Shown here in pieces: positions 42,683 to 47,018 of a stretch of DNA of 64,000 nucleotides. How positions within the stretch are numbered: position 1 is the first letter of the stretch; each line of letters starts with the position of its first letter. The position numbers and the translations under genes were made by a program. The notes below the pieces were generated by a model. It saw only the letters and a program-made list of their open reading frames with translations, was not told the DNA's origin and did not search any database. Source of the DNA: Microthrixaceae bacterium (GTDB lineage: Bacteria > Actinomycetota > Acidimicrobiia > Acidimicrobiales > Microtrichaceae); the NCBI GenBank assembly GCA_037045585.1, contig JBAOIR010000041.1:24112-88111 (forward strand), written 5' to 3'.

Positions 42683-43636
42683 CTAGGACCGGGGGACGAG
42701 GACCCGGTTGATGACGTGGATGACGCCGTTGGAGGCGTCGACGTCGGCGGTGGTGACGAGGGCCGTGCCGTTGACCGTCACCCGCCCGTTCTTGTACTTC
42801 CGGACGACCAGCTTGTTGCCGTTGAGCGTGGTGACGACGTTGCGCCCCACCTTCAGCTGCGACGAGGTGATCTCACCGGACACCACGTGGTACTTGAGGA
42901 TCGAGGCCAACTTGGCCGGATCGGCCAGCAGCTTCTCCGGCGTCGTGCGGAGGCGACGCAGGAGCGTACGGAACGCAGCGTCGGTCGGCGCGAACACCGT
43001 GTAGGGGCCGGGGGCCTTGAGGGCGTCGACCAGGCCGGCCGCCTTCGCGGCGGCGATCAGCGTCGAGAACGACCCGGCGTTCGCAGCCGTATCGACGATG
43101 TCGGGCTCGTGGGCCGGCGGAAGGAGCACCTGGTCGATGACGTGGATGACCCCGTTGGTGGCCTCGACGTCGGCCGTGATCACGGTCGCGCTCAGGTTGA
43201 GGGTCACCTTCCCGTCCTTGGGCACGACGAGGACCTGGCGACCCTCGAGCGTGGTGGGGCCGAGCGGGCCGGTGATCGCCGAGGACGGCACGGCGCCGCT
43301 CAGGACGTGGTACTTCAGGATCGCCGCCAGGATGGGCCCACTGTTGAGCAACTGGTCCTTGCTGATGCCGAGCTTGGTGAGCGCGGCGGAGAACGCCGCG
43401 TCGGTCGGAGCGAAGACGGTGTAGGGGCCCGGGCCCTTGAGCGCGTCGACGAGGCCCGCCTTCTGCGCCGCCTCGAGCAGCACCGAGAACTGCCCGGCAG
43501 CCTGCGCGGTAGCAACGATGTCGCCGGTCGGTGCCGCCGCCGCCTTCACCGGTGCCGCCCCGGCCGAGGCCATCGGGCTCAACAGCGTCAGCGCCAACCC
43601 GGCACCGGCCATTCGAACGATCCAGGATCTCTTCAT
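42683..43636 (-). CDS. Secreted protein with two fasciclin (FAS1) domains
   Basis: ATG 43636 is preceded by GGAGGA. After the signal peptide there are two copies of ..L.GPGPYTVFAPTDAAF....L......L..IL.YHV.SG......TL.G..L......V.V....V...D....NGVIHVID.VL. Confidence 0.85.
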   Translation of the reverse strand: MKRSWIVRMAGAGLALTLLSPMASAGAAPVKAAAAPTGDIVATAQAAGQFSVLLEAAQKAGLVDALKGPGPYTVFAPTDAAFSAALTKLGISKDQLLNSGPILAAILKYHVLSGAVPSSAITGPLGPTTLEGRQVLVVPKDGKVTLNLSATVITADVEATNGVIHVIDQVLLPPAHEPDIVDTAANAGSFSTLIAAAKAAGLVDALKAPGPYTVFAPTDAAFRTLLRRLRTTPEKLLADPAKLASILKYHVVSGEITSSQLKVGRNVVTTLNGNKLVVRKYKNGRVTVNGTALVTTADVDASNGVIHVINRVLVPRS

Positions 43637-43657
43637 TCGATTCCTCCGTTCAGTCAC

Positions 43658-43673
43658 ACCACCGATCGGTGGT
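43658..43673. promoter_or_regulatory. 16-bp perfect palindrome in the 5' leader of the FAS1 gene
   Basis: ACCACCGA TCGGTGGT lies between the predicted -10 (43684..43689) and the Shine-Dalgarno sequence of gene 42683..43636. Confidence 0.4.
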
Positions 43674-43683
43674 TCACCTGGTC

Positions 43684-43711
43684 GTTCGGGAGGTGCAACT
43701 CGTTCGGATGC
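43684..43711 (-). promoter_or_regulatory. ECF-type promoter motif GCATCC-N16-CCGAAC
   Basis: The minus strand reads tGCATCC gaacgagttgcacctc CCGAAC, 48 nt upstream of ATG 43636. Confidence 0.6.
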
Positions 43712-43756
43712 ACCACGGCGGAATCACCACACCCCCGCCGGTCACGTCCGGCCGGT

Positions 43757-43784
43757 GCATCCGTTGGGGGCGGATCGACCGAAG
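43757..43784 (+). promoter_or_regulatory. ECF-type promoter motif GCATCC-N16-CCGAAG
   Basis: tGCATCC gttgggggcggatcga CCGAAG ends 7 nt before ATG 43792, which implies a leaderless or near-leaderless transcript. Confidence 0.6.
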
Positions 43785-43791
43785 CACAGGT

Positions 43792-44343
43792 ATGACTCTC
43801 ATGAAGCGTTCTCTTGTCGCGTCCGTACTCGTCCTCAGCTCGCTCGCCACGGCGTGCGCGCCGATGCTGCCGACCCGAACGTCGACCGTCCCGTCGGTCG
43901 ACGTCAGCCGCTATCTCGGCACCTGGTACGAGGTCGCGAGCGTGAAGCAGTTCTTCTCGATCGGACTGGTCGGCAGCACCGCCGAGTACTCGCTCAACCC
44001 CGATGGATCGATCCGGGTCTTCAACTCCGGCAACTACTTCACCTTCGACGGTCCCCCGTCGAGCATCGTCGGATCGGCCGTGCCGGTCGACAGCTCGAAC
44101 GCCCGACTCAACGTGTCGTTCACCGGCTTCAACTCGGCCGAGGGCGCCGGCAACTACTGGATCGTCGATCTCGACCCCGATTACCAGTGGGCGATCGTCA
44201 GCGACCCGACCGGTGTCTCGTGCTTCCTCCTGAGCCGCACCCGCTCGATCTCGCCGGAGCTGCGCGCCGACCTCCTCGCCCGTGCAGCGGCGAAGGGCGT
44301 CGACATCAGCAACGTGAGCGAGACCCTGCAGCCCCCCGCCTGA
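43792..44343 (+). CDS. Bacterial lipocalin (Blc-like) lipoprotein
   Basis: Signal/lipobox region ..VLVLSSLATAC, then the lipocalin signature VDVSRYLGTWYEVA and NYWIVDLDPDYQWAIVSDP. Confidence 0.8.
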   Translation: MTLMKRSLVASVLVLSSLATACAPMLPTRTSTVPSVDVSRYLGTWYEVASVKQFFSIGLVGSTAEYSLNPDGSIRVFNSGNYFTFDGPPSSIVGSAVPVDSSNARLNVSFTGFNSAEGAGNYWIVDLDPDYQWAIVSDPTGVSCFLLSRTRSISPELRADLLARAAAKGVDISNVSETLQPPA

Positions 44344-44527
44344 TCACCTGATTGCGTTCCTGATCACCGGTGCGTCGGTGCGACGATCACGTCGTGCCGG
44401 CGCACCGTTCGCGTTCGGAGCATGTCCCGCTGAGCGGGCGAGTCGTCACGCTCACATCCATTGTTGACAGAGTGAGGGCCCCGCTCGCGGATTGGTGTTG
44501 CGACACATCAACCGGGAGGAGGCCCTC

Positions 44528-45611: not shown

Positions 45612-46125
45612 CGAACGCCTCCAGGTGTCGACGGAGCCGCTGGAGCCCTCGTCGGATATCGCTCTTGACCGTGCCGAGCGGAACACCGCTCTGCTCGGCG
45701 ATCTGGGTGTGGGTCTGGTCGTCGAAGTAGGCGAGGCGGACCATTTCCCGTGATCGCTCCGGGAGGTCCATGAGTGCGTCGGCGATCAGCATGCGTTGGG
45801 CCATCAGGTCGAGATCCTCTGTGACTCCCCGCTCGGCGTCCTGTGCGCTGACCGGCGCCAACGGGTTGCGCTGCTCGGTCCGGTGGATGTCGACCACCTT
45901 GAACCGGGCGATGCCCATGAGCCAACCGGCCAGGGAGCCGAGGTCGGGGCGGAACCGCTCCCTCGACCGCCAGGCGGCCAGGAAGACGTCCTGGGTGGCG
46001 TCGGCGGCACGGTGGTCGTCGAGGGCCCGCCGGCAGAACGAGTACACCAGGCGACTGTGCTCCCGGTAGATCTCCTCGAGGAGCGCGCTCGTCACCGGAA
46101 CGGAACCGCTCGGCGAGGAGCGCAT
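45592..46125 (-). CDS. ECF (group 4) RNA polymerase sigma factor
   Basis: 177 aa. The region 2 pattern is DATQDVFLAAWRSRERF.....L.GWL.GIAR.K..D. The region 4 pattern is RE.VRLAYFDDQTHTQIAEQSGVPLGTVKSDIRRGL.RLR. Confidence 0.9.
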   Translation of the reverse strand: MRSSPSGSVPVTSALLEEIYREHSRLVYSFCRRALDDHRAADATQDVFLAAWRSRERFRPDLGSLAGWLMGIARFKVVDIHRTEQRNPLAPVSAQDAERGVTEDLDLMAQRMLIADALMDLPERSREMVRLAYFDDQTHTQIAEQSGVPLGTVKSDIRRGLQRLRRHLEAFDDAPRS

Positions 46126-46236
46126 CGGCGTCGTGGTTCGAGTCCATTCGAACAGTCCGATCGCTCATCCGGACGCGTTCGAGCACATCGACGGCCACAG
46201 CGCTTCGTTCGTAGGTGTCGACAGCCACATTGAGTC

Positions 46237-46264
46237 GTTCGGAGTCACCGCCCTATCCGGATGC
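46237..46264 (-). promoter_or_regulatory. ECF-type promoter motif GCATCC-N16-CCGAAC upstream of the sigma gene (candidate autoregulation)
   Basis: The minus strand reads tGCATCC ggatagggcggtgact CCGAAC. It lies immediately downstream of terminator hairpin 46268..46295 and 112 nt upstream of ATG 46125. Confidence 0.6.
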
Positions 46265-46267
46265 ATA

Positions 46268-46295
46268 GGGCCGCAGCTTCTCACAGCTGCGGCCC
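46268..46295 (-). terminator. Perfect 11-bp stem hairpin after the FAS1 lipoprotein gene
   Basis: GGGCCGCAGCT tctcac AGCTGCGGCCC, 29 nt downstream of stop 46324 on the minus strand. Confidence 0.6.
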
Positions 46296-46323
46296 CTGCA
46301 TCACGGTGGGGAAGACGGTCGGA

Positions 46324-46953
46324 TCAGAGATCCGCGGGGCGAAGCACCAGGGAGAGGCCGTGGATGTAGCCGTTGGCGAGGGAGCCGCCGTAGTTGAACT
46401 TGCTGTACACGACACCGGCGTCATCGGCGTTCGGGTCGAGGTCGCGGAAGAGGATCAGGCTGAGCGCAGGGTTCACCACGTCGACCTTCAGCTTCCCGCC
46501 CTGCAGGGTGGTGAGCTCGGCACCGTTGGACGCCAGGGCGTCGGCAGCAGAGATCTTCGAACCGACGATGTGGTAGGTGAGCACCGTCTTGACGGTGGGC
46601 AGGCCGAGCGAGGCCACTGCGTCGAACACACCCTGCTCGTCGAGCACGACGTTGCCGGTGAGGCTGTACACCAGCACCTGGAACGCCCGGTCGTTGGGCA
46701 GGAACACCGTCAGGGACGCCGACGGGTCGGACGCGGCCTCGACGAGGTCGGGGTAGAGGAGGATCGCCTGGGTGGCGATGTCGAAGTCGTACCAGTCGTC
46801 GTCGAAGCCGGCGGCGTTGTCACCGGTGTCGGACAGCAGCTGCTGGGCGATCGTCTTCTCCGACGGCGCCGGGGACGGCACCGTGCAGGCACCGGCGGCG
46901 AGCGCTACGGCGAGGACGAGGGGGATGAGTGGGAGTCGTTGACGAAGTCGCAT
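46324..46953 (-). CDS. Fasciclin (FAS1) domain lipoprotein
   Basis: ATG 46953. Signal/lipobox LVLAVALAAGAC, then the FAS1 pattern LTVFLPNDRAF....VLTYHIV....TL.GG.L.V.....NG.IHG. Confidence 0.75.
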   Translation of the reverse strand: MRLRQRLPLIPLVLAVALAAGACTVPSPAPSEKTIAQQLLSDTGDNAAGFDDDWYDFDIATQAILLYPDLVEAASDPSASLTVFLPNDRAFQVLVYSLTGNVVLDEQGVFDAVASLGLPTVKTVLTYHIVGSKISAADALASNGAELTTLQGGKLKVDVVNPALSLILFRDLDPNADDAGVVYSKFNYGGSLANGYIHGLSLVLRPADL

Positions 46954-46990
46954 GGAGCGGCCTTTCGGTCGTGGTCGGGGTCGAGAGGTG

Positions 46991-47018
46991 ATTCGGTCGA
47001 CGGGGCCCCTGCGGATGC
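46991..47018 (-). promoter_or_regulatory. ECF-type promoter motif GCATCC-N16-CCGAAT
   Basis: The minus strand reads tGCATCC gcaggggccccgtcga CCGAAT, 38 nt upstream of ATG 46953. Confidence 0.6.

Follow-up and report, generated by a model that had tools for sequence, protein, structure and literature searches.

The stretch of DNA analyzed here, referred to as the window, comprises 64,000 nt from a Microthrixaceae bacterium of the Acidimicrobiia (assembly GCA_037045585.1, contig JBAOIR010000041.1). It carries a sigma factor gene of the extracytoplasmic function (ECF) type overlapping the gene for a membrane anti-sigma factor, three FAS1 genes, a lipocalin gene, an ABC exporter operon and six copies of a bipartite promoter-like motif. 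An initial annotation, made from the sequence, had described the central part of this locus as a SigK/RskA-like module. The analysis reported below very probably identifies a SigK-RskA-type ECF sigma/anti-sigma switch with a small local regulon.

Genes and motif copies in the window

The genes assigned to the system are the following, each given with its domain scores.

42683..43636, minus strand: secreted two-domain FAS1 protein, 317 amino acids (aa); Fasciclin, 225.6 bits in two stretches
43792..44343, plus strand: Blc-type lipocalin, putative lipoprotein (...LATAC); Lipocalin_2 (Pfam), 129.8 bits
44955..45611, minus strand: membrane anti-sigma factor, 218 aa; RskA_C (PF10099), 73.5 bits against a cut-off of 29.4, residues 83-204
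45592..46148, minus strand (intact-frame open reading frame 45592..46125): SigK-like ECF sigma factor; Sigma70_r2, 58.5 bits, and r4_2, 50.2 bits (Pfam)
46324..46953, minus strand: FAS1 lipoprotein A, 209 aa; Fasciclin, 37.2 bits against a cut-off of 22; signal peptide ending in ...LAAGAC
57952..58542, minus strand: FAS1 lipoprotein B, 196 aa; Fasciclin, 121.4 bits; signal ...LLAAGC
58624..61516, minus strand: ABC exporter operon, consisting of FtsX permease 1 (60395..61516), FtsX permease 2 (59301..60398) and an ATPase (58624..59304); Pfam FtsX and ABC_tran

The gene calls of the initial annotation held, with Sigma70_r2/r4_2 in the sigma factor, RskA_C and the KYELWLID pattern in the anti-sigma factor, and a 20-nt overlap between the end of the sigma gene and the anti-sigma gene. 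For the sigma reading frame 45592..46125 the domains had been recognized correctly, but this frame is only the 3' part of a frameshifted gene that starts at ATG 46148. FAS1 lipoprotein A is encoded directly upstream of the sigma gene, which is the position of MPT83 in the mycobacterial cassette, and FAS1 lipoprotein B is the window protein closest to MPT83 (36% identity over 132 aa to a Mycobacterium lentiflavum protein). The ABC operon is located about 14 kb from the sigma cassette. Both gene clusters, including their sizes and sites, also occur on near-identical metagenome contigs: the 317-aa FAS1 gene is the same in six of these (L001-L006), and the gene sizes of the ABC operon are the same in L093.

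Counted over both strands, the window has five exact matches to the motif GCATCC-N16-CCGAA, versus 0.05 expected from 100 dinucleotide shuffles, none of which (0/100) reached five matches; the earlier estimate of about 0.04 chance matches agrees with this value. All five exact copies of the initial annotation are present at the positions and on the strands it gave, and all are intergenic. Its count of five exact copies stands, whereas the total is six. The copy that had been missed, 58603..58576(-), carries one mismatch and was found using a relaxed scan (TGCATCC-ggaccggcgggtccga-ACGAAG). All six copies are intergenic and each is oriented toward the nearest start codon. They are listed with their scores from the weight matrix described in the next section.

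43685..43712, minus strand: site A, TGCATCC-N16-CCGAAC, before the two-domain FAS1 gene; 19.2 bits
43756..43783, plus strand: site B, TGCATCC-N16-CCGAAG, before the lipocalin gene, divergent from site A; 22.3 bits
46238..46265, minus strand: site C, TGCATCC-N16-CCGAAC, before the sigma/anti-sigma operon; 23.4 bits
46992..47019, minus strand: site D, TGCATCC-N16-CCGAAT, before FAS1 lipoprotein A; 28.3 bits
61613..61640, minus strand: site E, TGCATCC-N16-CCGAAG, before the ABC exporter operon; 27.2 bits
58576..58603, minus strand: site F, TGCATCC-N16-ACGAAG, before FAS1 lipoprotein B; 32.7 bits, the top match of the matrix

The core shared by the window sites is TGCATCC-N17-CGAA-nn-A, in which the trailing A is present in 6/6. 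Each of the three FAS1 genes has its own copy. Site E stands before an operon with two genes for FtsX-type permeases and one for an ABC ATPase, after which comes the third FAS1 gene; site F lies inside the 81-nt gap between the stop codon of the ATPase gene and the ATG of this FAS1 gene. Among near-identical contigs, site C is identical in L001-L006, site E is kept in L093 and site F in L093-L097. No sigma-70-like promoters were predicted in the gaps that hold the six sites, the sole such match preceding copZ. Between the stop codon of FAS1 lipoprotein A and the putative sigma promoter, a GC-rich hairpin was found at 46263..46299(-) (dG -31.5 kcal/mol, z -4.1; 0/200 shuffles equally stable). 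The hairpin resembles a terminator, lacks a U-tract and extends into the first bases of the site C -35 element.

Upstream of the lipocalin gene the spacing is particularly short. The site, placed by the initial annotation at 43757..43784(+) and 7 nt before the ATG, indeed reads CCGAAG followed by 7 nt to the ATG. Counted from CGAA, the distance to the ATG is 8 nt (43780..43794), and the identical spacing is found before the lipocalin ortholog of a second lineage (L009, 5211..5226). Because this gap leaves no room for a ribosome-binding site, the sequence suggests that the lipocalin mRNA is leaderless.

In the curated NCBIfam collection, neither the lipocalin nor the exporter reaches the level of a named family. 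The lipocalin scores 92.1 bits with Blc (NF007786; cut-off 267). For the ABC ATPase, scores were 221.9 bits with DevA (cut-off 295.8), 202 with MacB and 199 with LolD (cut-off 307.8), and DevC gave 23.5 bits versus a cut-off of 290. Assignment of the exporter is thus to the general FtsX and ABC_tran domains and not to the LolCDE, DevCBA or MacB equivalogs.

Several neighboring features were recorded. An insertion of about 0.5 kb (44416..44954), absent from L001-L006, carries an open reading frame (44492..44962(+)) whose end overlaps the stop codon of the anti-sigma gene; it encodes only the N-terminal helix-turn-helix/leucine-zipper part of an IS481-type transposase. A copZ-copA-csoR copper cluster (47142..50137(+)) adjoins the cassette. 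The ABC operon has an Hsp20 gene and a MerR-type gene (61770..62656) as neighbors; both groups are without the motif.

Conservation of the motif in Acidimicrobiia

For comparison, 80 Acidimicrobiia loci (799 kb in total) were used, with sigma factors 47-73% identical to that of the window and one genome scanned per species. The closest sigma homologs belong to Microthrixaceae and Acidimicrobiales metagenome-assembled genomes (MAGs). An RskA-type gene directly follows the sigma gene in 72/80 loci and a co-oriented FAS1 gene directly precedes it in 27/80; the latter order is also that of L001-L006.

These loci gave 40 matches to TGCATCC-N17-CGAA and 10 to the version with N16; for every other spacing from 8 to 27 the number was 0-4. 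In the reversed-sequence control, matches numbered 0 at N16 and N17 and 0-1 at any spacing. The 50 sites are located upstream of the sigma gene (34), FAS1 genes (8), genes for secreted DUF4397 proteins (5), a DUF427 gene (1) and genes for unannotated proteins (2). A site before the sigma gene is thus present in 34/80 loci under the strict pattern and in 48/80 when the -10 element is relaxed, and a relaxed site precedes the sigma-adjacent FAS1 gene in 19/23 loci with enough upstream sequence; for both counts the false-positive rate of the relaxed pattern is uncontrolled. A chance origin of the motif, considered as a further explanation, is ruled out by the shuffles of the window together with the spacing and reversal controls in the relatives.

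A weight matrix built only from the sites of the relatives retrieved exactly the six window sites, at 19-33 bits, with nothing further above 8 bits in the 64-kb window; its core positions are partly circular, as the training sites had been picked by the core of the window, and its flanks are independent. From these independent flanks, the A three bases after CGAA was recovered in 29/40 sites of the relatives. In L009, four sites are found in one cluster, one of them before a gene for a lipocalin 78% identical to that of the window, so that a second lineage supports the place of the lipocalin in the regulon.

Two short blocks, a non-conserved spacer of fixed length, constant orientation and a place before the sigma factor's own gene make up the pattern of a sigma-specific promoter. 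Sites A and B stand head to head, 45 bp apart, and could resemble an operator pair; apart from this, nothing specific was found in favor of reading the motif as the operator of a DNA-binding regulator or as a dispersed repeat. Such a reading is highly improbable: the spacer is not conserved although its length is fixed, every site is directed to a gene, individual sites lack dyad symmetry, and the elements match known sigma-dependent -35 and -10 elements.

The DUF4397 proteins preceded by the motif are secreted and about 240 aa long (L019:4856, L021:6572, L078:9533, L084:4861 and L080, the last on the minus strand at 2227 in reverse-complement coordinates); the copy before the DUF427 gene is at L010:6681. 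Judged from sequence, the DUF4397 and DUF427 genes are probably further regulon members in the relatives. Two contigs carry two paralogous FAS1-sigma-RskA cassettes each, every cassette with its motif: a few kilobases apart in JBGAOY010000045.1 (L014/L023) and about 20 kb apart in CAZWMT010000010.1 (L025/L033). Finally, two contigs labeled 'MAG: Bifidobacterium breve' (L082, CAMDAT010000025.1; L086, CAMDLX010000108.1) carry an Acidimicrobiia-type sigma/anti-sigma pair and the motif, and are probably mis-binned or mislabeled.

Likeness to mycobacterial SigK-RskA and other known systems

The mpt83-sigK-rskA cassette is described in PMC7509140 (citing Veyrier 2008) as a FAS1 lipoprotein gene, a sigma gene and a gene for an RskA-type anti-sigma factor. 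The mycobacterial system is placed in ECF19, and RskA-like anti-sigma factors have been listed for ECF18, ECF19, ECF214 and ECF290 (PMC7826278). Although MPT70 and MPT83 rank as major antigens in M. bovis and M. tuberculosis, their biological role and that of the SigK regulon are still unclear (PMC10540498). A literature text search for a SigK or ECF promoter consensus returned only unrelated work or RpoE-type motifs, and the mycobacterial promoters were read directly from fetched locus DNA, as follows.

Rv0449c promoter, M. tuberculosis complex: CCGTCC-N15-CCGAAT
mpt70 promoter, M. tuberculosis: CCATCC-N15-CCGAAG
mpt83 promoter, M. lentiflavum: CCATCC-N15-CCGAAT
mpt70 promoter, M. lentiflavum: CAATCC-N15-CCGAAG

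The CCATCC and CCGAAT-like elements that the initial annotation had mentioned for mycobacterial SigK promoters were therefore read in the DNA of mpt70, mpt83 and Rv0449c. Given the mycobacterial CATCC and CCGAA elements, the GCATCC-N16-CCGAA of the window belongs to this promoter type, its spacer being longer by one base (N16 between hexamers, compared with N15).

The likeness extends to the gene order. The FAS1 lipoprotein gene (46324..46953), the sigma gene and the gene for a single-pass RskA_C anti-sigma factor follow each other on the minus strand, and a SigK-type promoter sequence, with CATCC as -35 and CCGAA as -10, is found before the FAS1 gene (site D). As in mycobacteria, the predicted regulon is small, clustered and autoregulated, and two FAS1 proteins, one of the lipoprotein type and one of the secreted type, dominate it.

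The sigma factor contains regions 2 and 4 only and is a member of the ECF family (TIGR02937 sigma70-ECF, 96.9 bits versus a cut-off of 42.9). In NCBIfam it matches the SigK subfamily (NF007228) best, with a score of 103.8 bits that lies far below the cut-off of 226. Conserved cysteine pairs of the C133/C183 type form redox-sensitive disulphides and occur in 94% and 56% of the two ECF18-19 groups (PMC7509140; for the redox role see also PMC7826278). The positions of the M. tuberculosis SigK redox cysteines (C133/C183) are Thr and His in the window protein according to an alignment to 4nqw_A, and the sole Cys of the sigma reading frame is residue 31.

The anti-sigma factor consists of a short cytoplasmic N-terminal motif, one transmembrane helix and an extracytoplasmic RskA_C domain. 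It is 31% identical to M. tuberculosis RskA over 96 aa, this likeness being confined to the C-terminal domain. RskA_N (PF22618) gave no match in the window protein at E<=10, whereas M. tuberculosis RskA, included as positive control, scored 81.9 bits. At the place where RskA_N would be (residues 1-50, 45462..45611), about 60 relatives share a conserved motif, R-L..LL..L...DF.R..PP..LW..I, which spans about 35 residues and is followed by a variable linker. The profile searches proposed with the initial annotation thus returned RskA_C at 73.5 bits and SigK as the best NCBIfam family, the latter below its cut-off, and no match for RskA_N. Its wording 'SigK/RskA-like' is apt, since the SigK score, the RskA_N search and the redox cysteine positions all fall short of strict membership.

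Gene content differs as well. The window has no Rv0449c-Rv0446c-type genes (amine oxidase, DUF1365, CMAS, DUF1295) and no dipZ; instead, the lipocalin gene, the ABC exporter operon and a third FAS1 gene are present. The window system is a diverged relative of SigK/RskA-MPT70/83 that would work alike and falls outside strict membership on several counts. Published work already covers the cassette with its conserved promoter; the altered anti-sigma factor and the predicted lipocalin and ABC targets are new clues to the regulon.

Two other known systems were compared. The SigK-RskA pair of Yersinia enterocolitica, assigned to the neighboring ECF18/19 group, resembles the window system by description, with an RskA-type anti-sigma factor and a FAS1 (mpt83) gene that has a predicted sigma site upstream (PMC7509140), but belongs to a Gram-negative host. 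The exporter resembles LolCDE, MacB and DevCBA (type VII) in having two separate genes for FtsX-fold permeases and one for an ATPase, as LolC/LolE/LolD; it differs in scoring below the curated cut-offs and in that no adaptor or outer-membrane partner is present.

Competing explanations and the proposed circuit

A number of observations weigh against the assignment to a SigK-RskA-type switch. The window sigma factor is 30% identical to M. tuberculosis SigK, and among solved structures it scores higher with Rhodobacter sphaeroides RpoE (2q1z, 78.7 bits) than with SigK (64.5 bits). Some relatives have paralogous cassettes (L014/L023, L025/L033), so that a paralog elsewhere in the genome could read the same sites. 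For the N-terminus of the anti-sigma factor, no known anti-sigma domain was found by Pfam (E<=10), by phmmer against the PDB or by a family profile against the PDB, and binding to the sigma factor is consequently assumed from gene coupling. In L011 (~4300..5200, plus coordinates), the ABC operon lies behind a TetR-family gene of divergent orientation and a sigma-70-like promoter, TTGACA-N17-CATAGAT, in place of the motif. The sigma gene is frameshifted in the window; should the frameshift be genuine, this strain may have a weakened or dead switch. Promoter function and transcription start positions are themselves predictions made from sequence.

The first two of these points bear on whether the motif is read by another ECF sigma factor, be it a paralog or one of the RpoE/ChrR type (ECF11) encoded outside the window. 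RpoE of R. sphaeroides is the best-scoring solved structure, and RpoE-type promoters (TGATCC-N16-CGTA; PMC5507510) look similar to the window sites. Nevertheless, this explanation is improbable. The motif precedes the sigma factor's own gene in 34-48 of the 80 relatives, as is usual for autoregulated ECF factors; the -10 element agrees with SigK promoters in reading CGAA and not CGTA; and the partner gene is of the RskA_C type, whereas ChrR has a cupin sensor domain. The RpoE-ChrR regulon is a singlet-oxygen stress regulon and not one of FAS1 genes. The adjacent sigma factor, rather than a paralog, would be the one that reads the six sites.

The exporter requires a separate assessment. In L011 and L078 the ABC operon adjoins the cassette (in L078 the operon start falls outside the locus), which supports a functional link. 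A SigK-type site before the L011 operon was not found. With its TetR gene and TTGACA-type promoter and without such a site, the L011 arrangement makes direct control of the exporter by the sigma factor seem limited to the lineage of the window. The clustered SigK-like regulon proposed by the initial annotation is accordingly upheld for the cassette order and for the motif, conserved in dozens of relatives, but the place of the exporter in it is lineage-specific.

The frameshift in the sigma gene results from an extra base (1-nt insertion) at about 46082, which splits the N-terminus (MDSNHDADALLAERFRSGDERA) from the remainder, the true start being ATG 46148. It raises the question whether the circuit is a relic, with a sigma pseudogene and six promoters that are silent or served by another sigma factor. 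The insertion cuts off a conserved N-terminus, while six contigs (L001-L006; ~99% identical across the segment, about 96% over longer stretches) encode an intact 185-aa sigma factor, and the IS481-type transposase fragment beside the anti-sigma stop codon is found in the window only. We consider a relic unlikely, though to be reckoned with. From the in-frame ATG 46125 a product of 177 aa would still be made, with 14 out-of-frame N-terminal residues and with complete r2 and r4 Pfam domains, and the six promoter sites and all target reading frames are intact. In addition, a 1-nt deletion at about 49144 breaks copA, encoding a copper P-type ATPase (47542..49790(+)), into two reading frames, 47542..49302 and 49230..49790, whereas relatives have an intact 747-aa copA. 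Two frameshifts a few kilobases apart, one in the sigma gene and one in copA, suggest, from the sequence comparison, that both are indel errors of the assembly. Other indels of the window relative to L001-L006 are mostly in or next to intergenic DNA, with several more, in-frame and single-base, at about 52.3-54.0 kb.

Under the SigK-RskA-type reading, the circuit would operate as follows. The single-pass membrane anti-sigma factor, with its short cytoplasmic N-terminus and its RskA_C domain outside, would keep the sigma factor inactive, presumably by sequestration, until an envelope signal releases or activates it. RNA polymerase carrying the sigma factor would then initiate at promoters of the form TGCATCC(-35)-N16-nCGAA(-10)-nnA. 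Initiation at site C would transcribe the sigma/anti-sigma operon, resulting in positive autoregulation, and at site D the adjoining upstream gene, that of FAS1 lipoprotein A. Sites A and B would serve the divergent genes for the secreted two-domain FAS1 protein and the Blc-type lipocalin, the mRNA of the latter probably being leaderless. Site E would drive the operon of the two-permease FtsX/MacB/Lol-like ABC exporter, and site F the third FAS1 lipoprotein gene behind it. The products may act jointly on envelope lipids or lipoproteins.

A bolder reading, which we regard as doubtful, is that the FAS1 proteins, the lipid-binding lipocalin and the Lol/MacB-like two-permease exporter, all under one sigma factor, form a signal-induced module that transfers lipids or lipoproteins through the envelope or out of it. 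The anti-sigma factor controlling it would bind the sigma factor by no more than a reduced motif of ~35 residues, unlike described anti-sigma domains. Such a module may show what FAS1 proteins of the MPT70/MPT83 type do.

For the Microthrixaceae, TGCATCC-N17-CGAAnnA provides a usable promoter model for the annotation of genomes from wastewater and soil metagenomes. The locus also indicates that a sigma/anti-sigma pair can drift far, with loss of the redox cysteines and of RskA_N, while its promoter stays recognizable. A distant lineage has kept the FAS1-sigma-RskA_C logic and nearly the same promoter, with the accessory genes swapped for a lipocalin and an ABC exporter or, in relatives, for DUF4397 proteins. 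Comparison of the Acidimicrobiia and mycobacterial versions may provide clues to the role of the module in the envelope.

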